From positions 2,190 through 66,189 of the forward strand of contig JAUIFX010000001.1 of assembly GCA_030429865.1 (NCBI GenBank): a DNA stretch of 64,000 nucleotides. The letters are read 5' to 3'. A program made the translations under genes and the position numbers. Positions 4,435-27,716 of the stretch are shown piece by piece. Source of the stretch: Gammaproteobacteria bacterium (lineage in GTDB: Bacteria > Pseudomonadota > Gammaproteobacteria > Ga0077536). The notes beneath the pieces are model-generated. The model did no database searches. It saw only the letters and a program-made list of their open reading frames with translations, and was not told where the DNA came from. Numbering within the stretch: position 1 is the first letter of the stretch; each line of letters starts with the position of its first letter.

Positions 4435-5031
4435 TCAGTCGTTGGTGGCGCGCGCGGCGTCCACGGCGTCCGGACGTTCGAGTCTCAGCGCCGAGACGTC
4501 GAAGCCCTGGCCACGGGCAACGTCGAGCAACCGCTCGTAGGTTTCGCGCGGGATGCGCGGGGTCCGCGCGAGCACCCACAGGTAGTCGCGGTCCGGCGCG
4601 CCGACCAGCACGGCGCTGTAGTCGGGCTCGAGGGCGAGGATCCAGTAATCGCCCCACACGAAGGGCAGGAAACCGAGCCAGGCCGGCGCAAAGCGCACCT
4701 CGAGACGCGCCGGGTCGTCGTACTCGGCGTTGAGACGGGCGACGCCTTCGGCGCGCTGTAGCGTGCCGCCCTCGTCACGGCAGGCATTGACCACGCGCAC
4801 GCGGCCATCGGGCAGCGGCGAGTACGTTGCCGTGGTTTCGGCCTCGCACATCGCCTGGAAGCGATTGGGCAGCAGCGCGATCTGGTGCCAGCGGCCCATG
4901 TAACGATCGAGATCGACGTCTTCGACCGTTTCGAGCGCAGCTGCCGCACCGCCGGCCGCAGCCGTGACGACCGAGAACAGCGCCATGAGCAGGGCGCACA
5001 GCGGGACCGCCGTGCGCGCCATGTCGCTCAT
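4435..5031 (-). CDS. blc: Bacterial lipocalin (Blc-like) outer-membrane lipoprotein
   Basis: 198 aa from MSDMARTAVPLCALL... (lipoprotein-type signal) with lipocalin core DLDRYMGRWHQIALLPNRFQ...GDYWILALEPDYSAVLVG...YLWVLARTP. ATG overlaps the stop of the upstream AOR gene (ATGA). The upstream 460 aa of the 658-aa track ORF is R-rich shadow. Confidence 0.75.
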   Translation of the reverse strand: MSDMARTAVPLCALLMALFSVVTAAAGGAAAALETVEDVDLDRYMGRWHQIALLPNRFQAMCEAETTATYSPLPDGRVRVVNACRDEGGTLQRAEGVARLNAEYDDPARLEVRFAPAWLGFLPFVWGDYWILALEPDYSAVLVGAPDRDYLWVLARTPRIPRETYERLLDVARGQGFDVSALRLERPDAVDAARATND

Positions 5032-6749
5032 GCGACGTGCTGCTGCCACCAGCGCCGCACCGAAGCGTTGACCTCGGCGGCGTGGAAGCGGGCCACCTTG
5101 TTGCTCGGTTCGAGGGCTTCCTCGTAGAAGAACTCGGGCAGCTCGTCGTCGGCCTCGGTAAAGCCGGCGTCCGCGTTGAACTGCGCCTCGAAGCGCAAGG
5201 TCTCGCGGCCCAGCTCGTAGAAGAAGGATGGTTCGAGCGACGTGCCCAGCGCATCGTTGAGCAAACCGACGATCATCTCGATGTTGGTGTTGGTCACCGA
5301 GCGGCCGAACACGCACAAGCCCAGCGAGTCGGCGGTCGCGCACACGGTCTGCATTTCCATGCTGACATCGACCAGCTCGTCGATGTCCTTGCCACTGCAC
5401 TCGTACTTGGCCGCGTTGCCGGTCGTGTGGTCGGCGCCCTGCGCGGTCACCATCATCGAAATGCCGGTGACCTCGATCACCCGCGGGTCGTAGGCGCTGA
5501 TGCCCTGGCGCTTGATGACCGGGGTACGCTTGACGCCGTAGTGCTCGCCGACGTGTGCCGTGCCGCACGCCCACAGGCGCCCCTGCTCGGAGCCGGCACG
5601 GATTTCGTCCAGCACCCCGGTCAGGAAAGCCACGTCGCCGAACCCGGCGAGACCGGCATCGAGCAGCACCCCCATCATCGCCCCGGTCTCGATGGTATCG
5701 ATGCCGAGGTCGTTGGCGTGCCAGTTGAGGCGTGCCAGGTCGTCGGGGTCGGTGAGACCGCAGTTCGTGCCCATCAGTCCCAGCGTCTCGTACTCGACCG
5801 GCGAGGCGATCTCCTCGCCCTGCTCGTCGACGTAGACGTTGGAGCATTCGATCATGCAGCCCGGCATGCAGGCGTGCGACGTCGTACCGCCGCGCGACAG
5901 ATTGCGTTCGCGGATGTGCTCGCCGCCCATCTTGAGCACCGCGCCGGCACCGCGCACCTGGGCGCCGGACGTGAAGTTGTTCACCGGCAGGCCGCCGACG
6001 TGGTTGGTGTAATCGGCCATCATCGCCGTGCCGTAGTCGCGCAGCGCGCCTACGGCCTCGTCGGCGCGCAGCTTCGCGCCGTATTCCTTGATGCCCTTGA
6101 GCAGCTTCTTGCGATCGTGGAAGGTCGGCATACGGTCCAGATCGACCACCACCGCCTTGACCTTCTTCGCGCCCATCACGGCGCCCACGCCGCCGCGCGC
6201 GGCGAGGCGCGTCGGCCGCTTGTCGGTATCGCTCATCGAGATGCCGGCAAGCAGGCCGCCGTACTCGCCGACCGGTCCGCAAATCGCCAGGCTGACCTTC
6301 TGCCCGTACTTCTCGTGCAGCATCGCCGCGGTCTCGAACGTACCCTTGCCGAGGTACTCGCTGCCGCTGTCCCACTCGATGCGCCCATCCTTGCACAGGT
6401 GAATGACGCACCAGTCCTCGGCGGCGCCGTAGAGCGTGAAGCCGGCGATCTCGAGCTGGCCCAACGCGAGGCCGAAGGAACCGCCGGCATTGGATTCCTT
6501 GACGCCGCCGGTGAGCGGGCTCTTGCAGCCGACGCTGGTGCGGTTGGCGTTGGAGAAATTACTGCCGGCAAACGGGCCGGCCGAAAAAATCAGCGGGTTG
6601 TCGGGACCCAGCGGGTCGACCTTGGCCGCGCCCAGCTCGTTGAGCGTCTTGGCGATGAAGTAACGCCCGGCACGCGCGATCTGCTCGCCGGAAAAAGTTT
6701 CCTCGCGAACGCTGCGCTGGGCGAGATCGATGTGGAAATACTTGCGCAT
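5028..6749 (-). CDS. Aldehyde:ferredoxin oxidoreductase family (tungsten/molybdopterin enzyme)
   Basis: 573 aa: MRKYFHIDLAQRSVREETF..., AOR N-terminal and catalytic-domain features including an iron-sulfur Cys cluster region (CMPGCMIECSNVYVD). Confidence 0.85.
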   Translation of the reverse strand: MRKYFHIDLAQRSVREETFSGEQIARAGRYFIAKTLNELGAAKVDPLGPDNPLIFSAGPFAGSNFSNANRTSVGCKSPLTGGVKESNAGGSFGLALGQLEIAGFTLYGAAEDWCVIHLCKDGRIEWDSGSEYLGKGTFETAAMLHEKYGQKVSLAICGPVGEYGGLLAGISMSDTDKRPTRLAARGGVGAVMGAKKVKAVVVDLDRMPTFHDRKKLLKGIKEYGAKLRADEAVGALRDYGTAMMADYTNHVGGLPVNNFTSGAQVRGAGAVLKMGGEHIRERNLSRGGTTSHACMPGCMIECSNVYVDEQGEEIASPVEYETLGLMGTNCGLTDPDDLARLNWHANDLGIDTIETGAMMGVLLDAGLAGFGDVAFLTGVLDEIRAGSEQGRLWACGTAHVGEHYGVKRTPVIKRQGISAYDPRVIEVTGISMMVTAQGADHTTGNAAKYECSGKDIDELVDVSMEMQTVCATADSLGLCVFGRSVTNTNIEMIVGLLNDALGTSLEPSFFYELGRETLRFEAQFNADAGFTEADDELPEFFYEEALEPSNKVARFHAAEVNASVRRWWQQHVA

Positions 6750-6915: not shown

Positions 6916-7785
6916 ATGAACACGGCCCACCCGGCTCCGAGCGAGCTGCCGGCATGGCTCTATTGGCAGGAAGCGGCGCCGATAGACAGCGTCGAAGCGC
7001 CCACGCGCGAAGCCTTCGTCGAGCGCTGGGGCGCGCCCGGCCTGCCGGTCAAGCTCGGCGGCCTGACCGACGCGTGGCCCGCCCGTGAACGCTGGTCGGT
7101 GGCCTTCTTCCGTCGCGAGCACGGCGCCTGTGACGTCACCGTCGAGGCGCGCGCTGCCGCCGGCGGTACGCGCAGTGTACGCCTCGCCGATTACCTGGCG
7201 ACACTCGACGGGCCGACGGGAAACGAGGCCTGGTACCTGAAGGACTGGGTCTTCCGCGAGCAGGCGCCGGCCCTCGCCGACGACTACCGCGTACCCGCCC
7301 AATTCCCGGACTATTTCGCCGAACTCGAGCCGGCGCTGCGCCCCGGTTACAGCTGGATCTACATCGGCCCCCGGGACTCCGCATCCAACTTCCACCGCGA
7401 CGTCGCCGGCACCAGCGCGTGGAACGCGCTGATCCGCGGCCGCAAGCTGTGGCTGTTCTTTGCGCCCGACGAACACGCCGCGGCCTACGACAACTCGCTC
7501 GACGCGTTCGTACGCGACCGCAGCCCGGATCCACGCCTCGCTGCGCGACGACCGCTCTACTGCATCCAGGAACCGGGCGAGATCGTATTCACACCGTCGC
7601 TGTGGTGGCACCAGGTCTACAATCTCGAGACGTCGATCGCCGTGACCGAGAACTTTGCCGACGACTGCAATCTCAAGCACGTGCTGCGCGGCTTGCGCGA
7701 GCGTCCCGAGGGCCGCCATACGGCACTTGCGCTGGCGCTGCTGGTCGGCTGCCGCCGCCCGCGCCCGATTGGAGCGCGGCAGTGA
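6916..7785 (+). CDS. JmjC/cupin-4-like hydroxylase-fold protein
   Basis: 289 aa with ...SWIYIGPRDSASNFHRDVAGTSAWNALIRGRKLWLFF...FTPSLWWHQVYNLETSIAVTENF, characteristic of the JmjC/cupin fold. Confidence 0.6.
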   Translation: MNTAHPAPSELPAWLYWQEAAPIDSVEAPTREAFVERWGAPGLPVKLGGLTDAWPARERWSVAFFRREHGACDVTVEARAAAGGTRSVRLADYLATLDGPTGNEAWYLKDWVFREQAPALADDYRVPAQFPDYFAELEPALRPGYSWIYIGPRDSASNFHRDVAGTSAWNALIRGRKLWLFFAPDEHAAAYDNSLDAFVRDRSPDPRLAARRPLYCIQEPGEIVFTPSLWWHQVYNLETSIAVTENFADDCNLKHVLRGLRERPEGRHTALALALLVGCRRPRPIGARQ

Positions 7786-7838: not shown

Positions 7839-8210
7839 GTGAGCAATTCCAACGACGATGACCGCACGGTCGTGGTGAACCCGGCCTCGCTGCCGCCGCG
7901 CGTGCCCGATGAGGATGACGACGCCACGCCGTCCGATCGCACCGTCATCATGAAACCGTCGCAGCGCGCGCGCGAGGCGGCCGCGGCGCTCAATGCCGAA
8001 CGCCGCCGGCAGGAAAAGGCGAGCGCGGCAGAAGCGGCGGGCGAGGCCGTCGACTTCGACGTCACCCAGGGCATCGTCGCCGAAACGCCGGACGACGCCG
8101 TCGCGCCGCCGCGGGCGGCGGGCGGCAAGGGCATGCCCTGGGTGTTCGGATTCGTCGTCGGCGCGGTCGTCATGATCGGCGTCATCGTCGCCGTGCTCGC
8201 ACTGCTCTGA
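7839..8210 (+). CDS. Hypothetical acidic protein with C-terminal transmembrane anchor
   Basis: GTG start; Asp/Glu-rich N-terminus; single C-terminal hydrophobic helix WVFGFVVGAVVMIGVIVAVLALL. Start codon uncertain. Confidence 0.35.
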   Translation: MSNSNDDDRTVVVNPASLPPRVPDEDDDATPSDRTVIMKPSQRAREAAAALNAERRRQEKASAAEAAGEAVDFDVTQGIVAETPDDAVAPPRAAGGKGMPWVFGFVVGAVVMIGVIVAVLALL

Positions 8211-8268: not shown

Positions 8269-9633
8269 ATGAGCGAGCGCCTGCGCCTGATTCCCAGTGC
8301 CGATGTCGCCACCCTGGGCGCACATTGCTACCTTTTCGATCGCGCCGCGCTGCACGAAAACGTGGTGTCGGTGCCGACCCAGCGCGTTTCGCAGCGCATG
8401 CGCGAGGTCGTGCGGCGCATCCGCGCCGCGTGGCCCGACCATGCGCCACACCCGTACGGCGCCTTCGAGGCCCTGTTCGACAGCGCGGCGGAACGCAACG
8501 TGCTGGCGCAGCTGGCGCGTGCCGGTTACCTCGAGGCGGTGCCGCCGGTGGCGCCGGCACCCGGCGGCACGGCGGCGCGGAGCGGACACGCGGAGACCGG
8601 CGAGGCCACCGATCCGGCGGCGCACTTCCGCGAACGTGTCCTGCGCCACTTCTTCAAGCGCCCCGCGTTCTTCCACCTGCCGGAACAGATCGATGACGAC
8701 GACTGTGACGTTGCGCTCGTCGGCGTGCCGATTTCCTCGACGCTGGTCTCGAGCGGCACCGTCGACGCGCCCGCACGCCTGCGCCGCGACAGCCAGCGCG
8801 CCGGCTTCTGGTTCGACTTCCATGCCGACGGCGTCTATACCGAGACCGGCTGCGACGACAGTCCGCCGCGCCTGATCTGCGCGGGGGTGCGCGCGAAGGA
8901 CTTTGGCGACATCGGCAGCGACTGCCGCACCGTCGGCGAACTGTTCGCCCACGCGCGGCAGCTCGTCGACACGCGGCTCGTCCCGCATGGCATCCGCCCG
9001 TTGTTCATCGGGGGCGATCACGCGGTGACGTTCCCGCTCGTCGATGCCTACCTCCATCACCACCCGGGACTCGTCCTGATCCATCTCGATGCGCACAACG
9101 ACCTCTTCTACACCGAGCGGGTCGAGTTCAACCATGCCGGCCCGGTGCACGGTTTGCTCGTCCACTCCGGGCTCGACAAAGTGCTCTCACTCGGACTGCG
9201 CACCATCGGGGATCCCCGCGTCGGCCCCTACAAGCGCCTGGCCGCGAGCGGTGCGCTGCGCGAACGCGCGCACCTCTACTCGCTGCGGGCACTGGAACGC
9301 TGGCTCGACCGGCCAAGCGAGTTCCAGGCCCACCTGCGCGAATGCATCGGCGTTGACCGGCCGTGTTACCTCACCATCGATCTCGACGTACTGTCGGCCG
9401 ACTGCATCGCCGGACAGCTGTCGACCCCGGCAGGTCCCGGGCTCGGCTGGCACCAGCTGCTCGAGATGGTCCGCCTGGTGACGGAGACCTTCGACGTCGT
9501 TGCCTGCGACGTCGTCGAATTCAACCCGGATCACAAGGATCGCCCGGTCGACGATGCGCGCGAGATGACCGTCCTGCTGCTCGAGCTGATCGACGGACTC
9601 GCGCGCTGCGCGCGGCGCATCGTGCCGCCCTGA
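8269..9633 (+). CDS. Arginase/agmatinase/formiminoglutamase (ureohydrolase) family protein with ~150-aa N-terminal extension; candidate peptide arginase
   Basis: Ureohydrolase metal-binding motifs GGDHAVTFPLV, HLDAHNDL, TIDLDVLSADCIAG. Sits directly upstream of the NHLP precursor. Peptide-arginase role is inferred from context (OspR-type enzymes). Confidence 0.8.
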   Translation: MSERLRLIPSADVATLGAHCYLFDRAALHENVVSVPTQRVSQRMREVVRRIRAAWPDHAPHPYGAFEALFDSAAERNVLAQLARAGYLEAVPPVAPAPGGTAARSGHAETGEATDPAAHFRERVLRHFFKRPAFFHLPEQIDDDDCDVALVGVPISSTLVSSGTVDAPARLRRDSQRAGFWFDFHADGVYTETGCDDSPPRLICAGVRAKDFGDIGSDCRTVGELFAHARQLVDTRLVPHGIRPLFIGGDHAVTFPLVDAYLHHHPGLVLIHLDAHNDLFYTERVEFNHAGPVHGLLVHSGLDKVLSLGLRTIGDPRVGPYKRLAASGALRERAHLYSLRALERWLDRPSEFQAHLRECIGVDRPCYLTIDLDVLSADCIAGQLSTPAGPGLGWHQLLEMVRLVTETFDVVACDVVEFNPDHKDRPVDDAREMTVLLLELIDGLARCARRIVPP

Positions 9634-9963: not shown

Positions 9964-10338
9964 ATGGCTCAATCACTCCAGCAAGTAGCCGAGCGCATTC
10001 ACAAGGTGAAAGAGGAAGTGGCCGTCCAGGCAGTCCAGGACGACGACTTCCGCGAAGCCCTGATGAGCAACCCGACTGCCGCCCTGTGCGAAGAGTACGG
10101 CCTCGAGCCGAGCTTCTTCGAGAACATCTCGGTGCGCGTCGAGGTCGAGAACCCGAACGAAGTGGTCATCGTGATCCCGGCCGAGGCGGCCGAGGAAGAA
10201 CTCAGCGACGAGCAGCTCGAGGCAGTCGCCGGAGGCGCCGCCTTCATCGCCGGTGTTGCGGCCGGTGCCGCGGTCATCAGCGCTGCCGCCGCTGCGGGGA
10301 CCATCGTGCAGAACACCCGCGCGGGACGCCGCTGGTAA
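9964..10338 (+). CDS. NHLP (nitrile hydratase leader peptide) family RiPP precursor
   Basis: 124 aa. Leader ...NPTAALCEEYGLEPSFFENISVRVEVENPNEVVIVIPAEAAEEELSDEQLEAVAGG matches the NHLP consensus, including the LSDEELEAVAGG double-Gly cleavage motif. Core AAFIAGVAAGAAVISAAAAAGTIVQNTRAGRRW. Strong SD (GAGGGAG) 7 nt upstream. Confidence 0.85.
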   Translation: MAQSLQQVAERIHKVKEEVAVQAVQDDDFREALMSNPTAALCEEYGLEPSFFENISVRVEVENPNEVVIVIPAEAAEEELSDEQLEAVAGGAAFIAGVAAGAAVISAAAAAGTIVQNTRAGRRW

Positions 10339-10430
10339 GCAACCAGGGACGCGCCGCCGGTTCCTGCTCACCCCGTCTCTCCAGGCATGGCGTGACGCGG
10401 CGAGGCGCGCGGCGAACGGCGCTACCAAGC

Positions 10431-10461
10431 GCCGGCGGCGGGCAGGAGGCCCGCCGCCGGC
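10431..10461 (+). terminator. Perfect 12-bp GC stem-loop downstream of the precursor gene (putative attenuator/partial terminator)
   Basis: gccggcggcggg-caggagg-cccgccgccggc, perfect inverted repeat with 7-nt loop, followed by GGUGAUGAUUUCCU. Lies between the precursor stop (10338) and the next ORF. Confidence 0.4.
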
Positions 10462-10493
10462 GGTGATGATTTCCTGAGCACGAGGCGCCTCGG

Positions 10494-10688
10494 ATGAGCC
10501 TGCGACCCCATAAACGCAACCGGATCCTGGCGCTTGCCTTCCTCGCGCTCGGCCTCACGTTCGCGGCGCTTGCCCTGGCCGGAGGCGAAGCACGACTGAC
10601 CCTGGGTCTGGCGGCGCTGACCAACCTGCTCGCGGCATTCGTGTTCTACCAGCAGCAGCGCGGCCGGGACGACTCGGGGGCCGACTAG
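10494..10688 (+). CDS. Small membrane protein (64 aa, two predicted TM helices)
   Basis: MSLRPHKRNRILALAFLALGLTFAALALAGG...LAALTNLLAAFVFYQQQRGRDDSGAD. Hydrophobic; immunity or accessory role is speculative. Confidence 0.35.
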   Translation: MSLRPHKRNRILALAFLALGLTFAALALAGGEARLTLGLAALTNLLAAFVFYQQQRGRDDSGAD

Positions 10689-10983: not shown

Positions 10984-12162
10984 ATGAGCGGCTTGGACTC
11001 CGGGCGCCGGACTGCCGTCGACGCGCGCAGTCCGCACGACTTCAGCGTGGCCGACTACCTGCGCCCCCTCGCACGCGACCTGCCGCCAGCGCTGGTCGCG
11101 GCCGCGGCGCGCGATGCGATCATCGACCTCGCCGCGCAGCTGCCGGGCGCGATCACGAGCTTCTGCGGCTTCGAATGTCCACTCGGCAGCGTCGAGGCCC
11201 GCGCCGACTTCCTGCTCTGCAGCACGCGCGAAGAAGGCCATGCCAGCGTGCTCGCGGGTACGCACGGCGAGAGCGCACTCGCGCCCGCGCTGCGCGCGCT
11301 GCCGGCCTGGCAGCGCGTCGCGGAATTCTCCCGCGCATGGCTCGGCGGGGATGGCCTGCTTGCCGACCACCTCATGAACACCTGGCTCGAGTTCGACATC
11401 GGCCGCGACGCCGAGGCGCTCGCCGCGCCGAGCATGTTCTTCGGCACCCACCCTCCGCCGCCCGGCGCCGCTTCGCGCGCCCAGCTCGATGTCCTGCTCG
11501 CGGCACTGGCCGTGCTCGATCCGCCGGCCGTGCTGGGTCACCGTCGGCGCGCACTGGAAGCCCTGCTGGGAGCACTGCCGCCGGGCTGTCACGTGTTCCA
11601 GGTCGGTGCGATGTGGTCACGCGGTCAAGCGGCGGTACGGCTGTGCCTGCGCGGCGTCGAGCGTTCGGCCGTACCGTCCCTGCTCGGCGCGCTCGACTGG
11701 CCGGGATGCCGTGAAGACGTCGCCGTCCTGCTCGACACCGTGGGCGCACACGCGAGCCGCGTCGACGTCGATCTCGATCTCGGTGACCAGGTCGGTCCCA
11801 AGCTCGGCCTCGAGTGTTACTTCGGTACGGATGCCGGCAACGCCGCACGCCTCGCCGCGCTGACCGCGGCGCTCGTGCGCCACGGCGCGTGCACGCCGGC
11901 CGAGGCCGCGGCGCTCGATGCCTACCAGGGACTGACCCTGCAGGATGCCGCCCCGGCCGACTGGCCGCCTCATCTCGCCGCGCTCGCGCGTGCCGGCGGC
12001 CGCGGGCTGAGCAGCGCGCTGTGCCGCTGGGTGCACCACGTCAAGCTCGTGCACGAACCCGGCGCGGCACTGAGCGCGAAAGCCTACCTCGCCGTCGAGC
12101 ATCACCTGCTGGACCGGCGCCAGCTGCGCGCGCACATCGACGCCATGCGCAGCGGCGCCTGA
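10984..12162 (+). CDS. Hypothetical protein (392 aa), first gene of the translationally coupled modification operon
   Basis: Internal ATG (MSGLDSGRRTAV...) chosen because the upstream part of the track ORF (from 10783) is R-rich. No family recognised. Stop lies 6 nt before the halogenase start. Confidence 0.5.
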   Translation: MSGLDSGRRTAVDARSPHDFSVADYLRPLARDLPPALVAAAARDAIIDLAAQLPGAITSFCGFECPLGSVEARADFLLCSTREEGHASVLAGTHGESALAPALRALPAWQRVAEFSRAWLGGDGLLADHLMNTWLEFDIGRDAEALAAPSMFFGTHPPPPGAASRAQLDVLLAALAVLDPPAVLGHRRRALEALLGALPPGCHVFQVGAMWSRGQAAVRLCLRGVERSAVPSLLGALDWPGCREDVAVLLDTVGAHASRVDVDLDLGDQVGPKLGLECYFGTDAGNAARLAALTAALVRHGACTPAEAAALDAYQGLTLQDAAPADWPPHLAALARAGGRGLSSALCRWVHHVKLVHEPGAALSAKAYLAVEHHLLDRRQLRAHIDAMRSGA

Positions 12163-12168
12163 TCCCCG

Positions 12169-14727
12169 ATGCACGGCCCTTCCCCCGAGTACGACCTGGT
12201 CGTCGCCGGCGGCGGCCCCGCCGGCACCACGCTCGCCACGCTGGTCGCACGTGGCGGCCATCGTGTCCTGCTGCTCGAAGCAAACCGCTTTCCCCGCTAC
12301 CAGATCGGCGAGTCCCTGCTGCCGGCGACCTTCAACGGCCTGTTCCCGCTGCTCGGTATCGACGCCGACCCCGGCCGGCTGGGCGCACCGGTGCTCAAGC
12401 GGGGAGCGACGTTTCACTGGGGGCGCGACGACGACCTGTGGACGATGAACTTCGGCGGCGCGCCGGACGACACCGAACCCGCGCCCGACTGGCCGACGGC
12501 GTTCAACGTGCGCCGCGAGGTCTTCGACGACGTGCTGCTGGGCGCCGCCCGCGCGGCCGGTGTCGAGGTCCGCGAGGGCGCCCGCGTCACCGCTATCGAC
12601 GCCGACGGGGAACGCGTGCGCGGCGTCGAGGTGGGCAGCGACGACGGCACCCGCTGGCACGCGCGCGGCCGCTTCGTCGCCGGCGCAACCGGCCAGGGCT
12701 GTCCACTCGCGGCGCACGTCGGCACGCGCCAACCCTCGGTGTTCTTCCGCAACGCCTCGGTCTTCGGCTACTTCCATGGCGGCGCACGCCTGCCGGGCGC
12801 GCTCGCCGGCAACGTGCTGCTGGAAGCCTTCGACCAAGGCTGGGCGTGGTACATCCCGCTCAACGACGAACTGACGAGCGTCGGCGTGGTGCTGCATCAC
12901 CCGCACACGCAGCGTCTCGGCGGCGACCGCGAGGCCGCGTTCCGCGACAGCCTCGCGCGCTGCACCTACATCGACGGCTACCTGCGCGGAGCGCGTCGTG
13001 CCACCACGCCGCCCTACGCCGGGCTGCGCGTGCGTTCGGAGTTCTCCTACACGCACGCGCGCTTCTGGCGCGCAGGTGCGCTGCTGGTCGGCGACAGCGC
13101 CTGCTTCGTCGACGTGATTCTCTCCTCGGGCGTACACCTGGCGACGTTCGGTGCACTGCAGGCGGCGCGCGCTCTCAACGCCGTGCTCGACGGCGAATTG
13201 CCCGAGCGCCTCGCGCTCAACGAGTTCGAGCTGCGCTACCGTCTCGAGTTCACCCGCTTCTACCAGGGGCTGCTCGGCCTGCACGACATGGCCCACGATG
13301 GCGCCACCTACCGCGAATGGCTGCGCGGGATGCTGCGGCGTACCCAGGGCGTCTACCTCGACGACGCGGCGGCGCCGCCGGCGCAGCGCCGCCGCACCTG
13401 GCAGGCGCTGGCATGGCTGCGCAAGCAGAACGCGCAGCTGGTGGCGTCGACCGCGCCGCCCGCAATGGATGCCGCGGCCGCGCTGCCCGCGATCGCCGGT
13501 GAGCTGCTCGTGCATGCCGATGGACTGCGCTTCGCGCGCGCCGCCGAACAGACCGATGCCGGCGACGCGCCCGATCCGCGGGTCGACACGCCGCTCTACG
13601 ATTACGGCAAGCTGCACGCCAGCGCCGCTCCCTACCTGCAGGCCTGTCCCGACGGCGTCGACGGTGCGCTCGCGCTGGTCACGGCCGCGCGCAGCCGTGG
13701 CATCCACCTGCGCGTACGCGGCAGCGGGCACACCTTCAGCGGCGCGAGCCTGCCGCGCGAAGGCGAGGTGCTGGTGCGTACCAACGGCCTCGATCACTAT
13801 CACTTCCACGCGCCTGGCCGGCTCGTCGCCGGCGCCGGCGCCATGGTCTGGGACATCCGCGATCTCGCCCGCGACCACGGCTTCGACCTGCCCGTCTATA
13901 ACGGCGGTTGGGCCGGACCGACCCTCGGTGGCTACATCTGCGCCGGCGGGTTCGGCAAGAGCGGCCTGTCGGAGGATGCCGGCGGGCTGTGGGAGAACAT
14001 CTATGCCGTGCGTCTCGTCGACGGGCATGGGACGCTGCGCACGATCACGCGCGACGACGACGCCTTCCCGTGGCTGTTCGGCAGCTCCGGCCAGCTCGGC
14101 CTGCTGGTCGATGCCGAGCTGCGCCTGGTGCCGTACGCCGATGCCACGGGCGCGCCGCGCTACCCGGTCGATGAACGTGGCCGCGTACCGCGCCGCCAGG
14201 TCGATGACCCGCGCCTCAACGACGTCGCGCCACGGCCCGACGACGACAAGCGGCTGTTCTGGTTCACCTTGCTGGTGTCACCGGCGGAGGAAGCCGACGC
14301 CTGGGCCGGCCTCGAGCAGCTCGTCCTCGATCACCGCGACGTGCTCGTGCCGGATGGCGGCTGGGCCGGCCCGCAACTCGACGGTGCGCCGATCGGCTAC
14401 CGCTACGTGATCCGTTTCCACGAGTTCAACCCGCCGCTGGTCTACCCGCGCGCCGAGACGTTCCTGTGCATCGGCGTGATGAGCCTGCTCGCCAGTGGCG
14501 ATGCCGGGAGCGATGCGCGGCTGCGTGCGATCGAGCGCGATTTCGTCGCACTCGCGCGGACGCGCCGGCTGCGCCTGTACCTGCAGGCGGAAAACATCAC
14601 CGGGCAGGTAGACCAGCGCCGTTATTACGGGCGTGCGACCTGGGAACGCTTTCTCGAACTCAAACGCGACTTCGACCCCGCGGCGCTGTTCAATCGCGAC
14701 GTCGTCTTCCCTCCCGATGCGCTATGA
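12169..14727 (+). CDS. Fusion protein: flavin-dependent (tryptophan-type) halogenase N-terminal domain plus FAD-linked oxidase (PCMH-type FAD-binding) C-terminal domain
   Basis: N-terminus DLVVAGGGPAGTTLA (GxGxxG), GESLLP, and the halogenase signature WxWxIP (FDQGWAWYIPL). C-terminal half has RVRGSGHTFSGASL FAD-binding motif and oxidase-like body. Single uninterrupted 852-aa ORF. Confidence 0.8.
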   Translation: MHGPSPEYDLVVAGGGPAGTTLATLVARGGHRVLLLEANRFPRYQIGESLLPATFNGLFPLLGIDADPGRLGAPVLKRGATFHWGRDDDLWTMNFGGAPDDTEPAPDWPTAFNVRREVFDDVLLGAARAAGVEVREGARVTAIDADGERVRGVEVGSDDGTRWHARGRFVAGATGQGCPLAAHVGTRQPSVFFRNASVFGYFHGGARLPGALAGNVLLEAFDQGWAWYIPLNDELTSVGVVLHHPHTQRLGGDREAAFRDSLARCTYIDGYLRGARRATTPPYAGLRVRSEFSYTHARFWRAGALLVGDSACFVDVILSSGVHLATFGALQAARALNAVLDGELPERLALNEFELRYRLEFTRFYQGLLGLHDMAHDGATYREWLRGMLRRTQGVYLDDAAAPPAQRRRTWQALAWLRKQNAQLVASTAPPAMDAAAALPAIAGELLVHADGLRFARAAEQTDAGDAPDPRVDTPLYDYGKLHASAAPYLQACPDGVDGALALVTAARSRGIHLRVRGSGHTFSGASLPREGEVLVRTNGLDHYHFHAPGRLVAGAGAMVWDIRDLARDHGFDLPVYNGGWAGPTLGGYICAGGFGKSGLSEDAGGLWENIYAVRLVDGHGTLRTITRDDDAFPWLFGSSGQLGLLVDAELRLVPYADATGAPRYPVDERGRVPRRQVDDPRLNDVAPRPDDDKRLFWFTLLVSPAEEADAWAGLEQLVLDHRDVLVPDGGWAGPQLDGAPIGYRYVIRFHEFNPPLVYPRAETFLCIGVMSLLASGDAGSDARLRAIERDFVALARTRRLRLYLQAENITGQVDQRRYYGRATWERFLELKRDFDPAALFNRDVVFPPDAL

Positions 14728-16195
14728 CCCGAACCTGCCGCGGGCCGTGTTTCTGGGCCCCTCTTTCGCGCCCGCCGCGGCGGCCAGGCTGCTGCCCGCG
14801 AACTACTATCCACCGGTGCGCATGGGTGACGTCTATCGCCTGCTCGCCAGCGGCGTCGAGACCATCGTCATCATCGACGGCGTGTTCCACCAGAGCACGC
14901 CGGTATGGCAGCGCGAGATCCTCGCCGCGCTGGAAGCCGGTATCCGCGTCGTCGGCGGTGCCAGCATGGGCGCGCTGCGCGCCGCCGAACTCGCGCCCTA
15001 CGGCATGGAAGGCATCGGTACGATCTACGGCTGGTACCGCGATGGCGTGATCGATGGCGACGACGAGGTCGCGCTGGTCCACGCCGACGCCGAGCTCGAG
15101 TACCAGGCGCTGTCGGAGCCGCTCGTCAACATGCGCTACAATCTGGCGCGCGCGCGCGCGAACGCCGTCATCGACGCCGCCGCGCACGACGCGTTGTTGG
15201 CCGCGGCGCAACAGCGCTGCTTCACCGAGCGCAGCTGGCGCCGCCTCGAAGCGGCGCCCGCCTGGCAGGCTCTGGCGCCTGCGCGCCGCGCGGCGCTTGC
15301 CGCCTTCCTTGCGAACGATTATGTCGATCTCAAGCACGCCGACGCGCGAGCCGTGCTCGAACACGTGCGCCGCAGCACCGCAGACAGCCGTTCCGCGCTA
15401 CGCCCGCGCAGCCGGTGGTCGTATCCCGGCAGCGCCCGCGTACGTCTGCAGGCCGCGCTGGCGCCGGACGGCAGCCTGGTCGACGGCGCCACCGTGCTCA
15501 CCAGGGCACTCGCGGCCGACGACGCCTGGGTCGCTCCCTGTCTGCGCGAGGCGCACGCGCGCTGCTACCTCGAGGACTGGCTCGAGCGCTGCGCCGCGAT
15601 GCCGCCGGCGGAGACGCTGGCGCCGTTCCTGGCCAGGGTGACGCCTGCGCAGGCAAGCGGTGACGCAGCCGCGTTCGCGCGCGCCAACGGCCTGACCCGC
15701 GACGAACTCGACGCCGCGCTCGCGGCGCGTGCACGCCATGCCTGGCTGCTGGCCGGGGAAAGCGCCATGCCCGGGACGGACGACGCCGCGCACGACGCCC
15801 TCCTCGCCGCCCTCGGCGAGACGGCGGCGAGCGCGCGCGCGGCGGCACGCCGCGACGCCTGCCTCGCCGCCTGGGCGCGCCGGCGCGGCATCAGCTGCCC
15901 CGCAGCCGAGCACGACCGGCGCGCGCCGCACTGGTGTGCCGCGCACGGACTGTCCGCGGCGGCAGTCGACGCCGATGCGCGTCTCGCGCGCGCCCTCGCC
16001 GAACGGGTCCTTGCCGCCTGGCTGCTCGACCAGGAACCGGCACACTTCGGTTTCGAACGTTTCTCTGCCGACGCCGAGCTGCTGCTCGCGCTCAAGCTCG
16101 ATGGCCGCCACGCGGCGCTCGTCGCCGACCTGACCGGCGTGCGTGCCGCACCGGCACCACCGCACAAGGACAGCAGCGCCGCGGGGGCCGCATGA
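14717..16195 (+). CDS. tfuA: TfuA-like protein (YcaO partner for thioamidation) with long Ala-rich C-terminal extension
   Basis: N-terminal ~230 aa match the TfuA core (VFLGPSFA...GDVYRLL...IVIIDGVFHQSTPVWQREILAALEAGIRVVGGASMGALRAAEL...GIGTIYGWYRDGVIDGDDEVALVH). Overlaps the halogenase stop by 11 nt and the ycaO start by 4 nt (ATGA). Confidence 0.75.
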   Translation: MRYDPNLPRAVFLGPSFAPAAAARLLPANYYPPVRMGDVYRLLASGVETIVIIDGVFHQSTPVWQREILAALEAGIRVVGGASMGALRAAELAPYGMEGIGTIYGWYRDGVIDGDDEVALVHADAELEYQALSEPLVNMRYNLARARANAVIDAAAHDALLAAAQQRCFTERSWRRLEAAPAWQALAPARRAALAAFLANDYVDLKHADARAVLEHVRRSTADSRSALRPRSRWSYPGSARVRLQAALAPDGSLVDGATVLTRALAADDAWVAPCLREAHARCYLEDWLERCAAMPPAETLAPFLARVTPAQASGDAAAFARANGLTRDELDAALAARARHAWLLAGESAMPGTDDAAHDALLAALGETAASARAAARRDACLAAWARRRGISCPAAEHDRRAPHWCAAHGLSAAAVDADARLARALAERVLAAWLLDQEPAHFGFERFSADAELLLALKLDGRHAALVADLTGVRAAPAPPHKDSSAAGAA

Positions 16196-17358
16196 ACCAC
16201 GCCTTCGCCTACACGCGCGGCACCTACCGTATTGCGACCCCGCAGGCCACGCTGGCGCGCATCGCGCCGCTGCTGCCGGCATGCGGCATCACGCGCGTCA
16301 CCGCGGTCACCCACCTCGATCGCCTCGGCGTGCCGGTTTACTGCGCGATCCGCCCGAACGGCGTCGTCCTGCAGGTCTCCAACGGCAAGGGTCTGAGCGC
16401 CGACTGCGCGCGCGTCTCGGCGCTGATGGAAGCGATCGAGCTGCACCACGCCGAGAACCCGCCGCCAGGCGCGCTGCGCGAAGCCACCCAGGCCGAACTC
16501 GAAGCCGCCGGCGAACGCGTGCTCGCGCCGCCGGCCCTGCCCGGCTACAACGGGGCCTACTTCGCGCGGGACTTCCGCCTGGAATGGATCCGAGGAACGG
16601 CGCTGGATGACGGCGCCGCCGCCTGGGCCCCGGCCAGCCTGGCCTGCTTCGCGCGCTCGCCGGCACCGCTCGTCACCGACACCAACGGCCTGGCCTCCGG
16701 CAATCACCTGCTCGAAGCGAGCCTGCACGCGCTCTACGAGCTGCTCGAGCGCGACGCCCTGGCCGGTCTCGGGCAGGATGGCCGGCTCGCCATCCGCGAA
16801 CGCTGCCGCGTCGTCGACACCGCTTCGATCACCGATACCGATCTGCACGCGCTGATCGCCGCCATCGCCGCGCGCGAGAGCCACGTCGTGCTGCTGTGGG
16901 TGCCGAGCCGCGTCCCGGTGCACACGTTCTGGGCGGTACTGCTCAACCGCCGCAGCGGCGCGGCACCGGTATCGACGCTCAACCTGGGCGCCGGCTGCCA
17001 CCACGACCCGAAGGTCGCCGCGGCGCGTGCCGTGACCGAGGCGGCACAGTCGCGCCTGAGCTTCATCCATGGCGCGCGCGAGGATCGCGTTGCCAAGCCC
17101 GTCGACCGCGCGCGCGCGGTTTCGGAAAGCCCCGCCTATCGCTATTTCGATGGCCTCGAGGCCGACACCGCGTGGCACGAGCTGCTGCCTGCCGCGCATT
17201 TGCCCGGCGATCTCGAGCAGGCGCACGACTGGCTGGTCACGGCTTTGTCGGGCACCGGCATCCGCGCGTGGCGCTTCGACCTCACCCGCGCCGAACTCGG
17301 TATCCCGGTAGTCAAAGTCGTCGCGCCCGGCCTCGCCTTCAATGGACGCCTGCTGTGA
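16192..17358 (+). CDS. ycaO: YcaO domain protein (ATP-dependent backbone amide activation; thioamide or azoline forming)
   Basis: MNHAFAYTRGTYR...; YcaO ATP-binding motifs SALMEAIELHHAE and LHALYELLERDAL (ExxERD), GLASGN. Internal ATG coupled to the tfuA stop. Confidence 0.85.
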   Translation: MNHAFAYTRGTYRIATPQATLARIAPLLPACGITRVTAVTHLDRLGVPVYCAIRPNGVVLQVSNGKGLSADCARVSALMEAIELHHAENPPPGALREATQAELEAAGERVLAPPALPGYNGAYFARDFRLEWIRGTALDDGAAAWAPASLACFARSPAPLVTDTNGLASGNHLLEASLHALYELLERDALAGLGQDGRLAIRERCRVVDTASITDTDLHALIAAIAARESHVVLLWVPSRVPVHTFWAVLLNRRSGAAPVSTLNLGAGCHHDPKVAAARAVTEAAQSRLSFIHGAREDRVAKPVDRARAVSESPAYRYFDGLEADTAWHELLPAAHLPGDLEQAHDWLVTALSGTGIRAWRFDLTRAELGIPVVKVVAPGLAFNGRLL

Positions 17359-18133
17359 ACGCGGCGCACGCAAGACCGTCGTGACGGCGACACCCGCGAA
17401 CGCCCTGGTCAGCCGCGCCGCGGTGCTCGACGAGGCTGCCTGCGCGGCCATCGCCCAACGCGTGCACGCCCTGCGCGCGCACTGGGTCGCGCGCGACGCG
17501 GCCGCCTTCCACACGCTCGGCGCCGCGCTCTACCTCGACCGTCCGACGGCCGCGACGCGTGAACGCTTCGGTCTCGCCGATGCCGACCCGGCGCGCTACG
17601 GCACGCTCGCCCGCGCGACGAACACCCTGCTCGAAGCCGGCTTCGCCGAGCTCTACGCCGCCTTCGCCGACGCGCTCGCCGGCCTGCTCGATGCCGACGT
17701 ACGCTACGCGGCCGACCGCGCCCGCCCCGGCTTCCACGTCTTCGAGCACCACCCTTCCTACGCCCGGCAGTCCGCGCACGTGCCCCATTTCGACCGGCAG
17801 TACGAGTGCATCGACTGGCCGCAGGCGGCAACCATCGACTTCACGGCGGCGATCTCGATCACGCTGCCGATCCGTTTGCCGGCGCGTGGTGGCGGGCTGC
17901 GCGTGTGGGAGCTGAACCTGTTCGACGTACAGGCGCTGGGTCCCGCCGCGGCGCGCGAACGCGCGCGCCGGGCGCCCTCGCGCGTACATCGCTACGTGCC
18001 GGGTGAACTGGTCTGCCACCGCGGCCACCTCCTGCACCAGATCCAGCCCTGGCCCTCGCGGCCCGGCGACGAGCGCATCACGCTGCAGGCGCACGGCCTG
18101 TTCTACGACGGTGCCTGGCAACTCTACTGGTAG
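17342..18133 (+). CDS. Putative Fe(II)/2-oxoglutarate-dependent oxygenase-like protein
   Basis: Candidate HxD...H facial triad (HVPHFD ... CHRGHLLH). Overlaps the ycaO stop by 17 nt, so last gene of the coupled operon. Family assignment weak. Confidence 0.4.
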   Translation: MDACCERGARKTVVTATPANALVSRAAVLDEAACAAIAQRVHALRAHWVARDAAAFHTLGAALYLDRPTAATRERFGLADADPARYGTLARATNTLLEAGFAELYAAFADALAGLLDADVRYAADRARPGFHVFEHHPSYARQSAHVPHFDRQYECIDWPQAATIDFTAAISITLPIRLPARGGGLRVWELNLFDVQALGPAAARERARRAPSRVHRYVPGELVCHRGHLLHQIQPWPSRPGDERITLQAHGLFYDGAWQLYW

Positions 18134-20310: not shown

Positions 20311-20416
20311 TTGTTTTATTTGATACATCGCGTATCGTAAATCATCCTGCGCGAGCCTCGTGAAGGCGCACCACGCGCGCTGTGCGGCCACTGCCAACGA
20401 CAACCGGGGAGCGTCC

Positions 20417-27551: not shown

Positions 27552-27716
27552 GTGATGACGTCGCCGGCCGGCCCCACCGGCCGCGCATTGCACCACGGGC
27601 TGCCGCCCACCGCCTGTCCCCGGATCCTCGATAATCAGTATCGATATACTAAAATTAGATAGTTATATCGCTTTTCTCGTGTAAACTCTTACCTGATTCA
27701 GGCACGACGACATCCC

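Follow-up and report, generated by a model that had tools for sequence, protein, structure and literature searches.

A conserved, tryptophan-ended NHLP-leader peptide and its proposed hypermodifying gene cluster in uncultured Gammaproteobacteria

Introduction

What does a 124-codon open reading frame encode when its product joins a long leader to a Cys-free core that is rich in alanine and ends in tryptophan, and what would the surrounding enzymes do to such a peptide? A locus in a 64,000-nucleotide stretch of gammaproteobacterial DNA (the window; 69.8% GC) raises this question. An earlier note, made from the DNA letters, had read the ORF as an NHLP-type precursor of a peptide made by the ribosome and modified after translation (a RiPP). 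We think it likely that the ORF is the sole precursor of an uncharacterized group of proteusin-like RiPPs, made with NHLP leaders by uncultured Gammaproteobacteria, with a tail that would be hypermodified and a product that would be exported and membrane-active. The gene, the family to which it belongs, the conservation of the core, the synteny of the cluster and the folds and motifs of the enzymes are shown by the data below; each chemical step, its site and its place in the order we infer from the families of the enzymes, and the bioactivity proposed below is of the same kind.

Results

A single NHLP-type precursor gene under purifying selection

The ORF lies at 9964–10338 on the plus strand and is translated as MAQSLQQV...LSDEQLEAVAGG/AAFIAGVAAGAAVISAAAAAGTIVQNTRAGRRW, followed by the stop (124 aa). 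It divides into a leader (9964–10236, residues 1–91, ending AVAGG), a core (10237–10335, residues 92–124) and the stop codon (10336–10338), and its composition is of the coding type (GC3 0.81, GC2 0.43). Residues 14–91 of the leader match TIGR03793 at 59.4 bits, above the curated cutoff of 50.9; this is the HMM search by which the earlier note had wished its NHLP assignment to be checked, and the assignment stands. The note had named two findings that would speak against it, namely no significant match to NHLP models, or homologues with a C-terminal region that is not conserved or not cleaved after Gly-Gly; both were looked for and neither was seen. Sixteen homologues with identities of 98 to 44% conserve both the leader and the core, and in the 17 sequences A89, G90 and G91 of the Gly-Gly motif that closes the leader (AVAGG, residues 87–91) are invariant. 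In a codon-level comparison of seven homologous loci, pN/pS of the core was 0.08–0.46 with pS of about 0.6, and the core is thus under purifying selection. Because leader and core are kept in 16 homologues and the core has these pN/pS values, the ORF is more than a chance reading frame, and its identity as a real ribosomal peptide precursor gene is confirmed. When the six reading frames of the window were searched, unfiltered, with the family profile, the only match was the precursor ORF (next best E 0.42), so further precursors in the window were rejected. The single precursor gene that had been reported therefore holds for the window, and the related clusters at L006 and L017 have two and three, respectively. 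Consensus scans around the precursor recognized neither a sigma-70 promoter nor an intrinsic terminator.

A hydrophobic core with an invariant C-terminal tryptophan

A recount of the core gave 33 residues, among them 13 Ala, 4 Gly, 3 Arg, 1 Ser, 2 Thr, 1 Phe and 1 Trp with no Cys, which agrees with the composition first described (Cys-free, three Ser/Thr, three Arg, terminal Trp). The Trp is the sole electron-rich aromatic residue. Invariant positions among the homologues are the N-terminal AAF and, in the tail VQNTRAGRxW, A120, G121 and W124; R119 and R122 are retained in at least 90% of them. The C-terminal RRW, for which conservation had been suggested as a check, is thus conserved in part, since R123 varies (R/K/S/Q/N/A/G). 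Ser106, Thr113 and Thr118 are not conserved. Distant representatives keep the tail as VQN[ST]RAGRxW or G[VI]RRGW and have a diverged hydrophobic middle. A terminal Trp occurs in 49 of the 149 closest NHLP-like representatives whatever residues precede it, and because one third of these related precursors are Trp-ended, C-terminal Trp chemistry could be a widespread and overlooked theme. On the Kyte-Doolittle scale, core residues 1–24 have a mean of 1.99 and residues 25–33 one of -2.3, the core contains ten small-xxx-small pairs, and class IIb/IIc bacteriocin models match it weakly, below threshold.

A syntenic cluster with a dedicated export system

The precursor sits in a cluster of about 23 kb (6916–30053) that is syntenic in at least eight independent metagenome or MAG loci. 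The same gene set flanks the precursor at L004, L008, L009, L011/L012, L013, L014, L015 and L006, and in part at L017; the contigs of L016 and L017, which carry distant precursors, are short and give partial gene context. Precursor identity across the syntenic loci falls to 44% with enzyme order unchanged. A genome scan with family-specific patterns returned three cluster loci. An identical copy of the precursor protein was found on a single short public contig (994 bp), and the closest cluster belongs to a MAG labeled Gammaproteobacteria bacterium. Overlaps between genes indicate that the cluster is one operon. The literature covered, mostly papers available without subscription, holds no description of a cluster with such an enzyme combination, and the cluster is apparently undescribed so far.

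The downstream part of the cluster, on the plus strand, encodes export proteins. A cyclic-nucleotide-binding protein of the bacteriocin-transport-associated type (20360–20953; PF00027; TIGR03896 130 bits, below the cutoff of 161) is followed by an NHLP bacteriocin system HlyD-type periplasmic adaptor (20950–22392; TIGR03794 328.5 bits, cutoff 156.2), an NHLP export ABC transporter with an N-terminal C39 peptidase domain (22385–24637; Peptidase_C39 2.5e-35; TIGR03796 1050 bits, cutoff 853), a second NHLP export ABC transporter subunit (24630–27551; TIGR03797 840 bits, cutoff 709) and a TolC-like outer-membrane efflux protein with a C-terminal LysM match (27717–30053; PF02321 1.7e-34), which is the probable outer-membrane part of the exporter. 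The adaptor and both ABC proteins, all above their curated cutoffs, are thus co-located with the precursor. The C39 domain is predicted to cut the leader after Gly-Gly, the cleavage proposed in the earlier note, with which both the invariant Gly-Gly site and the equivalog-level match of the exporter agree.

Two small proteins with hydrophobic segments accompany these genes on the plus strand. The 123-aa protein at 7839–8210 is acidic and of low complexity in its N-terminal part and has a transmembrane helix at the C-terminus (hydrophobic from about residue 97); it gave no matches in the family search, and weak homologues occupy the equivalent position at L004, L008, L014 and L015. Directly 3' of the precursor, a 64-aa ORF (10494–10688) with two hydrophobic segments, of which one is clear and the other weaker, has 44–55% identical counterparts in the same position at L004, L008, L009, L013 and L015, and none was detected at L014 or L006. 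Our guess is that it encodes an immunity or membrane protein.

An arginase and a JmjC protein point to modified arginine side chains

The gene at 8269–9633 (plus strand) encodes a 454-aa arginase/ureohydrolase-family protein that matches PF00491 over residues 147–424 (5e-33; 115 bits, cutoff 22), preceded by an extension of some 140 aa without a match. Its metal motifs GGDH248, DAHND274 and DLD371 are intact when aligned to guanidinobutyrase (3nio), and we predict that it hydrolyzes peptidyl-Arg to Orn. An OspR-type arginase (PF12640) in the window was considered and rejected, as the enzyme belongs to PF00491, a family for which KgrD provides a precedent on a RiPP (PMC12703449). L006 has, in place of this arginase, a PF12640 peptide arginase (61.5 bits) with all three peptide-arginase motifs listed in PMC12703449 (DEHAD, EEHHEAF and LDIDIDFFSS). 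This swap for an OspR-type enzyme in a distant sister cluster gives strong, though indirect, support to the Arg-to-Orn conversion that had been proposed from the core composition, and the fusion to the JmjC protein described below supports it indirectly too. If correct, the window enzyme would be the second case of a classical PF00491 arginase acting on a peptide, and the natural swap would show that both arginase types are interchangeable.

A JmjC/Cupin_8 Fe(II)/2OG protein hydroxylase with an HRD160–162 motif is encoded at 6916–7785 on the plus strand (Cupin_8 3e-20, JmjC 1e-14). Its nearest solved structures are JMJD6 (4e-32) and JMJD5 (2e-17), and at L004, L008 and L015 it is fused to the arginase in one 819-aa protein, which makes it a candidate Arg/Orn side-chain hydroxylase. 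Its gene is absent within the 20 kb seen at L006 and so does not belong to the universal core set.

YcaO and TfuA suggest a thioamide in the tail

A 492-aa TfuA protein (14717–16195, plus strand) carries an N-terminal TfuA domain (PF07812 2.4e-45) that matches solved TfuA (6xp8, 4e-44, residues 10–219) and scores 218 bits against NF033432, for which the cutoff is 235; its C-terminal 260 or so extra residues match no family. The start of the following YcaO gene (16192–17358, plus strand) overlaps the TfuA stop codon by 4 nt, and the adjacent pair is kept in all sister loci. The YcaO, an ATP-dependent backbone-amide activating enzyme by family (PF02624 1.9e-65; TIGR00702 178 bits, cutoff 75.65), has as its closest specific model the YcaO of McrA-glycine thioamidation (173 bits, below the cutoff of 365); a further match, of 109 bits, is to the TOMM cyclodehydratase model. 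YcaO-TfuA pairs make thioamides, and the adjacent pair is consistent with the thioamide that had been proposed for the Ala/Gly backbone; the placement in the Ala/Gly stretch gains no support, and conservation favors the C-terminal tail as the site.

Azole formation was rejected as the main reading: neither an SagB/McbC-type dehydrogenase or FMN dehydrogenase nor an E1/ThiF-like partner was found among the ORFs scanned across the cluster, and the core has no conserved Cys, Ser or Thr. Azol(in)e chemistry is thus unlikely, although the earlier statement that the core composition rules it out was too strong. Radical_SAM gave no matches in the GC3-supported ORFs scanned at 2.1–31.6 kb or in further ORFs.

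An alternative, which we consider unlikely, is that the YcaO makes Ser/Thr azolines, or an amidine through attack of an Orn delta-amine or the N-terminal amine on an activated backbone amide, so that the product would be cyclized in place of carrying a thioamide. Because YcaO and TfuA both score below the McrA equivalog cutoffs, another outcome such as an amidine with an Orn amine is possible; the match to the cyclodehydratase model, the unexplained extra domain of TfuA and the arginase, which would yield nucleophilic amines near the invariant Ala-Gly, fit this idea as well. It is opposed by the translational coupling of TfuA to YcaO in every cluster, by the close match of the TfuA domain to the solved structure, and by the variable Ser106, Thr113 and Thr118 together with the missing azoline dehydrogenase and E1-like partner among the ORFs scanned. 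Thioamidation of at least one amide in the tail is the outcome that we favor.

Enzymes that may converge on the terminal tryptophan

An 852-aa fusion protein is encoded at 12169–14727 on the plus strand. Its N-terminal part is a CndH-like flavin-dependent halogenase (3e1t, CndH, 4.5e-103; about 55% identical to CndH) with the motifs GGGPAG14, K77 and WAWYIP225. From about residue 477 it continues as a VAO/PCMH-type FAD_binding_4 oxidase domain (PF01565 1.4e-13, residues 493–626), whose PDB matches over residues 477–660 are generic (cytokinin dehydrogenase and BBE-like, about 1e-8). In L006/L007 each half has a gene of its own, and these genes are neighbors. A QhpG/LodB-type Trp hydroxylase was also considered for this protein and rejected, with NCBIfam scores of 134 and 62 bits that are far below the cutoffs; the identity to CndH, the WxWxIP motif and the Lys identify it as a halogenase. 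A second flavin-dependent halogenase of about 671 aa, CtcP/PltM-like (7v0b 6.7e-75, 6bzt 3.4e-67), is encoded on the minus strand at 18170–20185 and has the motifs GAGITG, WMWVIP and GVKKSFGF, with the Lys in the last aligned to the PDB matches; this halogenase is kept in all sister clusters. MibH (5uao) is absent from the PDB matches of the first halogenase at E <= 1e-3 and of the second at E <= 1e-2, and no flavin reductase was found in the cluster. With two halogenases that have WxWxIP and the catalytic Lys, and a single electron-rich aromatic residue in the core, the halogenation of Trp envisaged in the earlier note is supported as a prediction.

Two further proteins were recognized by fold. 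The 392-aa protein at 10984–12162 (plus strand) is predicted to form a 10-strand PT barrel of five alpha-alpha-beta-beta units with Arg, Lys and Tyr at alternate strand positions, the fold of ABBA aromatic prenyltransferases of the DMATS/indole type, and has no match in Pfam (even at E <= 1) or NCBIfam. The 263-aa protein at 17342–18133 (plus strand) has a double-stranded beta-helix with the HxD...H triad (H149-x-D151, H232) and the 2OG-binding Arg (R245) of a WelO5/SadA-like Fe(II)/2OG oxygenase, and likewise has no sequence-family match. Four maturases escaped the earlier note, namely the prenyltransferase of ABBA fold, the oxidase domain of VAO type, the Fe/2OG oxygenase and the JmjC protein. 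Taking the enzymes together, the tail would carry ornithine, a thioamide and a halogenated Trp that is probably also prenylated and oxidized.

Could the peptide be a carrier instead of the product? Ammosamide-type pearlins are built on the C-terminal Trp of a scaffold peptide, and by analogy the Trp, perhaps with Orn, might be converted to a halogenated prenylated indole alkaloid and cut off as a small molecule. As many as five enzymes whose relatives are of indole or aryl type meet at a single Trp here (the two halogenases, the indole-prenyltransferase-like ABBA fold, the VAO oxidase and the WelO5-like oxygenase), as such a pathway would have it, and the 49 of 149 Trp-ended representatives with differing preceding residues point the same way. 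The Trp is genetically encoded, however, and a PEARL-type ligase is absent; moreover, the ORFs scanned between 5 and 31.6 kb include no peptidase other than the C39 domain, so that nothing would release a C-terminal residue. Purifying selection extends over the whole core, including the N-terminal AAF and the hydrophobic segment, the Gly-Gly-cleaving peptide exporter is conserved, and the targets of the arginase and the JmjC enzyme would remain on the discarded scaffold. We therefore judge this explanation improbable, slightly more so than a different YcaO outcome, and retain the modified, exported peptide as the product.

An orphan paralogue and the improbable case of an unmodified bacteriocin

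A syntenic cluster had been expected at L002/L003, which hold the paralogue P0012; an orphan precursor was found instead, beside unrelated genes and without adjacent maturases. The same MAG carries the full cluster on another contig (L013). The prenyltransferase-fold and Fe/2OG protein families were seen solely in this cluster type. That the gene encodes a class II-like bacteriocin which has an NHLP leader and stays essentially unmodified, and lies next to enzymes of unrelated pathways by coincidence, might be argued from this orphan and from the sub-threshold resemblance of the core to double-glycine class IIb/IIc bacteriocins, but is very improbable given the identical enzyme set and order at no fewer than eight loci over precursor identities down to 44%, the confinement of two enzyme families to the cluster, the gene overlaps that point to one operon, and the complete cluster in the genome with the orphan copy.

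Discussion

How might these enzymes act together? In the pathway that we propose, the acidic 91-aa leader would offer the 33-aa core to maturases of a fixed set, the majority of which would act on the tail ...VQNTRAGRxW. The PF00491 arginase would convert one or more tail Arg residues to Orn, and the JMJD5/6-like JmjC enzyme, arginase-fused in some clusters, would probably hydroxylate the same Arg or Orn side chain. YcaO and TfuA would convert at least one backbone amide to a thioamide without forming azoles. The invariant terminal Trp would be halogenated by the two flavin halogenases and prenylated by the cryptic DMATS-like ABBA prenyltransferase, and may be oxidized further by the WelO5/SadA-like Fe/2OG hydroxylase and by the VAO/PCMH flavin oxidase fused to the first halogenase. 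One possible outcome of the VAO reaction is oxidative decarboxylation in the style of CndG and FeeG, which would leave a C-terminal indolyl enamide. Finally, the C39-ABC/HlyD/TolC system would cleave after Gly-Gly91 and export a 33-mer that combines a 24-residue Ala/Gly/Val/Ile segment, transmembrane helix-like and rich in small-xxx-small pairs, with a cationic, lipidated aromatic anchor. Such a peptide most likely acts on membranes in the manner of a bacteriocin.

A more ambitious extension, which we put forward tentatively and hold to be less probable than its negation, is that the family represents a new RiPP class with a rebuilt C-terminus, in which the Trp is prenylated, mono- or dihalogenated, hydroxylated and oxidatively decarboxylated by the halogenase-VAO fusion, with (hydroxy)ornithines and a thioamide adjacent to it, giving a lipidated cationic anchor on a transmembrane-helix peptide. 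The cap would then be a neutral halo-prenyl-indolyl enamide, and the prenyltransferase would belong to a previously unrecognized ABBA family.

If the proposed chemistry is correct, a small operon would direct six or seven post-translational reactions, unreported together, to one 33-residue peptide: conversion of Arg to Orn, hydroxylation of a side chain, thioamidation of the backbone, double halogenation, prenylation and an oxidative remodeling of the C-terminus. Among its enzymes would be halogenases of the CndH and CtcP/PltM clades that are guided to peptides by a leader, a family of prenyltransferases that sequence profiles cannot see and possibly the first VAO-type C-terminal decarboxylase for peptides. 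The enzymes would be attractive for peptide engineering, and the product of these uncultured Gammaproteobacteria could plausibly be an antibacterial that targets membranes.

Among known systems, the srp proteusins of sponge symbionts (precursor SrpE, brominase SrpI, YcaO SrpC) have a halogenase that acts on the C-terminal Trp of the core (PMC10858898), and they share with the present cluster a long NHLP-type leader that ends in Gly-Gly, a YcaO and a flavin-dependent halogenase. The SrpE core, in contrast, is a short one rich in Cys (LCCCW), on which the YcaO forms thiazolines, whereas the core here has 33 residues and is Cys-free and transmembrane-like, and the YcaO here is paired with TfuA. 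SrpI is related to MibH, and the halogenases here are CndH-like and CtcP/PltM-like (a comparison made via MibH); the arginase, prenyltransferase, VAO, JmjC and Fe/2OG enzymes are extra. Strict, polytheonamide-type proteusins are defined by a radical SAM epimerase or C-methyltransferase, for which the ORFs scanned here gave no Radical_SAM match. Of the hallmarks of TOMM or linear azol(in)e peptides, the cluster ORFs include a YcaO, no E1-like partner or dehydrogenase was found among them, and the core is not rich in conserved cyclizable residues.

Conversion of Arg to Orn on a RiPP core is known from landornamide, which has an NHLP leader and an OspR-type enzyme, and from the enteropeptins, whose KgrD is a PF00491 protein (PMC12703449). 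KgrD and the window arginase share this family, and the latter adds its N-terminal extension of about 140 aa. Unlike the landornamide enzyme, it is not a PF12640 protein, the OspR type occurring only at the sister cluster L006, and the lanthionine, epimerase and thiomorpholine machinery of those pathways is missing here. The peptide-arginase literature examined makes no mention of an arginase-JmjC hydroxylase fusion.

McrA thioglycine, the thioamitides and the thiovarsolins rely on adjacent, coupled YcaO-TfuA pairs, as would the present family, and the proteins of McrA-glycine thioamidation are the closest specific models here, with both scores below the equivalog cutoffs. This cluster differs from those systems in its NHLP precursor substrate, its gammaproteobacterial host, the additional C-terminal domain of TfuA and the lack of AviCys/HFCD machinery.

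For the C-terminus, CndG and FeeG are VAO/PCMH enzymes whose reaction yields an enamide from an N-acylated aromatic amino acid at the C-terminus (PMC11350588). The chondrochloren pair CndH/CndG resembles the fusion protein in joining a CndH-type halogenase to a VAO/PCMH-family domain, on a substrate that ends in an aromatic amino acid; their substrate is a tyrosyl PKS/NRPS product, whereas ours would be a ribosomal peptide with Trp, and the likeness to CndG is at family level. Cyanobactin prenyltransferases (PagF, KgpF) and indole enzymes of the DMATS type (CymD, MpnD) have the PT barrel that is predicted for the 392-aa protein.

The mature peptide itself would resemble class IIb/IId bacteriocins and daptides, which likewise have a Gly-Gly leader, a C39 exporter and a hydrophobic, helical-looking core with small-xxx-small pairs and a cationic end. 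Their leaders are short, however, and their cores are unmodified or shaped by another enzyme set. Daptides have their C-terminal carboxylate removed or replaced (PMC10036551).

A conserved NHLP precursor

The ORF at 9964-10338 (+) encodes an NHLP precursor whose core is conserved and under selection. It has 124 codons and an ATG start, its translation is identical to the sequence quoted in an earlier note made from the DNA alone, and its codon-position pattern (GC3 0.81, GC2 0.43) is that of genuine genes in the window, which has a GC content of 69.8%. The NHLP leader proposed in that note spans residues 1-91 and scored 59.4 bits with the curated NCBI model TIGR03793 (cutoff 50.9), and in Pfam related precursor and nitrile-hydratase families matched below threshold only. 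The core, residues 92-124 (AAFIAGVAAGAAVISAAAAAGTIVQNTRAGRRW), is Cys-free and Ala/Gly-rich as had been described, its 33 residues including 13 Ala, 4 Gly, 3 Arg, 2 Thr and one each of Ser, Phe and Trp. A six-frame family-profile search of the window with all filters off found no second precursor copy, which bears out the claim of a single precursor gene.

A search of 5.8 billion proteins returned 16 homologues (98-44% identity), all metagenome- or MAG-derived, two of which carry a Gammaproteobacteria label. Across the aligned homologues the Gly-Gly of the cleavage site and the first three core residues (AAF) are invariant, and the C-terminal region is conserved, with Ala120, Gly121 and Trp124 invariant and Arg119 and Arg122 present in at least 90%. 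Arg123 (R/K/S/Q/N) and all three Ser/Thr core positions are variable. Codon-level comparison of seven homologous loci gave a core pN/pS of 0.08-0.46, with synonymous sites close to saturation (pS about 0.6) and constraint on the core at least equal to that on the leader. Remoter relatives, found when a profile was searched against 1.84 billion cluster representatives, retain the tail VQN[ST]RAGRxW or G[VI]RRGW behind a divergent hydrophobic middle.

Of the 149 NHLP-like cluster representatives that matched the family profile best (P0064-P0212), 49 (33%) have Trp as their last residue, usually in the form ...RRW, ...RxGW, ...GW or ...SW behind very different cores, and a C-terminal Trp looks to be a widespread, under-appreciated trait of NHLP precursors. 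A paralogous precursor, P0012 (locus L002, 10001-12816; L003 is arranged alike), is 56% identical and lies remote from any maturase, the full maturase cluster of its MAG being on a separate contig (L013). Its core is lengthened by a Gly/Val insert and ends RAGRQW. It adjoins an integrase, a type I restriction-modification system and two proteins that look secreted and have C-termini (VPLPAALPLF..., VPLPATLPLM...) similar to PEP-CTERM sorting signals.

The spacer that follows the precursor gene (10339-10493) is GC-rich and structured. Its strongest stem, at about 10433-10459, is a perfect G/C hairpin of 10 bp that lacks a T-tail (z-score of the whole region -1.96). L004, L008, L009 and L015 likewise have strong hairpins in the corresponding spacer, but L006 does not. 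The hairpin may stabilise or attenuate the transcript and so set the precursor-to-enzyme ratio.

A conserved operon of putative maturation and export genes

The precursor is associated with a Gly-Gly-cleaving exporter in a conserved operon of putative tailoring enzymes. Family scans of GC3-supported ORFs, with start codons refined against homologues, defined a cluster at about 6916-30053. A JmjC/Cupin_8 hydroxylase (6916-7785), a 123-aa membrane-anchored protein (7839-8210) and a PF00491 arginase-family protein (8269-9633) precede the precursor, which is followed by a 64-aa hydrophobic ORF (10494-10688), a 392-aa protein (10984-12162), an 852-aa halogenase/FAD_binding_4 fusion (12169-14727), TfuA (14717-16195), YcaO (16192-17358), a 263-aa protein (17342-18133) and, on the opposite strand, a 671-aa flavoprotein (18170-20185; halogenase 2). 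A cNMP-binding protein, HlyD, C39-ABC, ABC2 and a TolC-like protein occupy 20360-30053; of these, HlyD, C39-ABC and ABC2 clear the equivalog cutoffs curated for NHLP bacteriocin export. In the 973-aa ABC2 subunit (24630-27551) the TIGR03797 match starts at residue 286, leaving the first ~285 residues outside the alignment. An aldehyde:ferredoxin oxidoreductase (5028-6749, minus strand) lies on the upstream side, and beyond about 30 kb the window holds housekeeping or unrelated genes.

Gene set and order are identical around the homologous precursors of loci L004/L015, L008, L009, L011/L012 and L014. The closest relative, L013, from a Gammaproteobacteria MAG (80-93% protein identity), is also syntenic, its contig ending just past the precursor. 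The distant cluster L006 (precursor identity 44%) has two precursors and encodes the halogenase and FAD_binding_4 protein as separate genes. A still remoter fragment, L017, carries three precursors, which end in RRGW or SRGW, together with a PhyH oxygenase, a homologue (38% identity) of the 392-aa protein and the first part of a CndH-like halogenase. In L004 (2656-4020) and L008 (3784-5154) the genes just before the arginase-JmjC fusion encode an alpha/beta hydrolase and a luciferase-like monooxygenase; these have no counterparts in the window and may be extra lineage-specific tailoring genes. The MAG contigs L014 and L015 bear the titles 'uncultured Klebsiella sp.' and 'Klebsiella pneumoniae'. 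They have a GC content of 59-63% and a gene content that fits environmental Gammaproteobacteria MAGs, and the labels look wrong.

Predicted tailoring of the core

Conservation of the C-terminal tail points to it as the main modification site, and the leader would direct the maturases onto the core. No core arginine is more than five residues away from the terminal Trp. The arginase retains its binuclear-metal ligand motifs (GGDH, DAHND, DLD) and aligns with guanidinobutyrase, agmatinase and arginase structures. At L006 it is replaced by a PF12640 protein (61.5 bits) with DEHAD, EEHHEAF and LDIDIDFFSS, the three defining motifs of OspR-type peptide arginases (PMC12703449). Since two unrelated arginase families thus swap naturally between clusters, there is strong comparative evidence for a predicted conversion of peptidyl Arg to Orn. 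Among solved structures the JmjC protein is closest to the lysyl hydroxylase JMJD6 (E 4e-32) and the arginyl hydroxylase JMJD5 (E 2e-17). In L004, L008 and L015 arginase and JmjC form one 819-aa protein, a fusion that suggests hydroxylation of the same Arg/Orn side chain; no JmjC gene was seen at L006.

The TfuA domain matches a solved TfuA at 4e-44, and the closest specific NCBIfam models of TfuA and YcaO are the McrA-glycine thioamidation pair, both scoring below the equivalog cutoffs. The presence of YcaO and TfuA without azole partners or conserved Cys/Ser/Thr predicts backbone thioamidation. It is possible that YcaO yields an azoline or amidine instead, but its coupling to TfuA disfavours this outcome. 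The earlier note had stated that the core 'rules out' azolines and had placed thioamides in the Ala/Gly backbone; both statements were somewhat too strong. Its reading is supported wherever sequence can test it. The invariant Ala-Gly of the tail is a speculative thioamide site. The N-terminal ~140 aa of the arginase (8269-8710) and the C-terminal ~260 aa of TfuA (15404-16195) drew no sequence match from Pfam, NCBIfam or the PDB; both extra domains are kept in sister clusters and may be leader-binding modules.

Trp124 is the only electron-rich aromatic in the core open to the two flavin halogenases. Halogenase 1, the N-terminal part of the 852-aa fusion, matches the chondrochloren halogenase CndH over residues 7-382 (PDB 3e1t; E 4.5e-103) and retains K77 (KRGATFHWG) and WAWYIP, and halogenase 2 matches CtcP and PltM at about 1e-75, with WMWVIP and the Lys present. 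From about residue 477 the fusion is a VAO/PCMH-type FAD domain. Two VAO/PCMH flavoenzymes, FeeG and CndG, the latter from the pathway of CndH, turn a C-terminal N-acyl tyrosine into an enamide by oxidative decarboxylation (PMC11350588), and by analogy decarboxylation by the fused domain is a lead. The 392-aa protein has no Pfam or NCBIfam match and only 12 homologues, all from the same cluster type. An AlphaFold2 model built from their alignment is confident (pLDDT 87.6, pTM 0.88) and has five alpha-alpha-beta-beta units, a predicted ABBA prenyltransferase fold; its invariant Arg, Lys and Tyr residues (in RLCLR, KAYL, HHxK and LECY) alternate along the strands, as would be expected of a diphosphate-binding barrel. 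The 263-aa protein has a predicted WelO5/SadA-like Fe/2OG oxygenase fold, and the cluster holds two sequence-orphan enzyme families recognisable by predicted fold alone. The earlier note's enzyme picture was incomplete, lacking the putative prenyltransferase, VAO domain, Fe/2OG oxygenase and JmjC hydroxylase. The indole-prenyltransferase-like fold, two halogenases, halogenase-VAO fusion and WelO5/SadA-like oxygenase suggest that Trp124 would be prenylated, halogenated and oxidised, with decarboxylation to an enamide as a further possibility.

Proposed product

Cleavage after Gly91 would be followed by export of the 33-mer. A 24-residue core segment resembles a transmembrane helix (mean hydropathy 1.99, ten small-xxx-small pairs), and the exported peptide would comprise this segment and then a cationic, lipidated aromatic anchor, as would suit a bacteriocin that acts on membranes. 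A candidate for the immunity protein is the conserved hydrophobic ORF of 64 aa that follows the precursor gene. A less likely alternative is a scaffold-peptide (pearlin-like) route to a small indole alkaloid; against it stand the selection on the hydrophobic core, the presence of a dedicated peptide exporter and the lack of a releasing protease among the ORFs scanned from 5 to 31.6 kb. Coincidental adjacency of precursor and enzymes is contradicted by the synteny across loci.

Comparison with known systems

The separate elements of the cluster have precedents. YcaO-TfuA pairs produce thioamides, and ABBA prenyltransferases act on cyanobactins. SrpI is a brominase that acts on the Trp at the C-terminus of a proteusin precursor (PMC10858898), OspR-type and KgrD-type arginases form ornithine in RiPPs (PMC12703449), and an aromatic residue at the C-terminus is the target of CndH and CndG (PMC11350588). 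A literature search with incomplete full-text coverage found no description of this enzyme combination or precursor family. The window cluster differs from strict proteusins in having no radical SAM enzyme. In the membership tests it fell outside the TOMMs, its arginase outside the OspR type and its halogenases outside the MibH/SrpI type, whereas it belongs with NHLP precursors and the NHLP export system. The cluster is thus that of a RiPP with an NHLP leader, and it apparently represents an undescribed hypermodified family that offers several enzymology leads, with a chemistry that is predicted throughout and stays within established RiPP logic.
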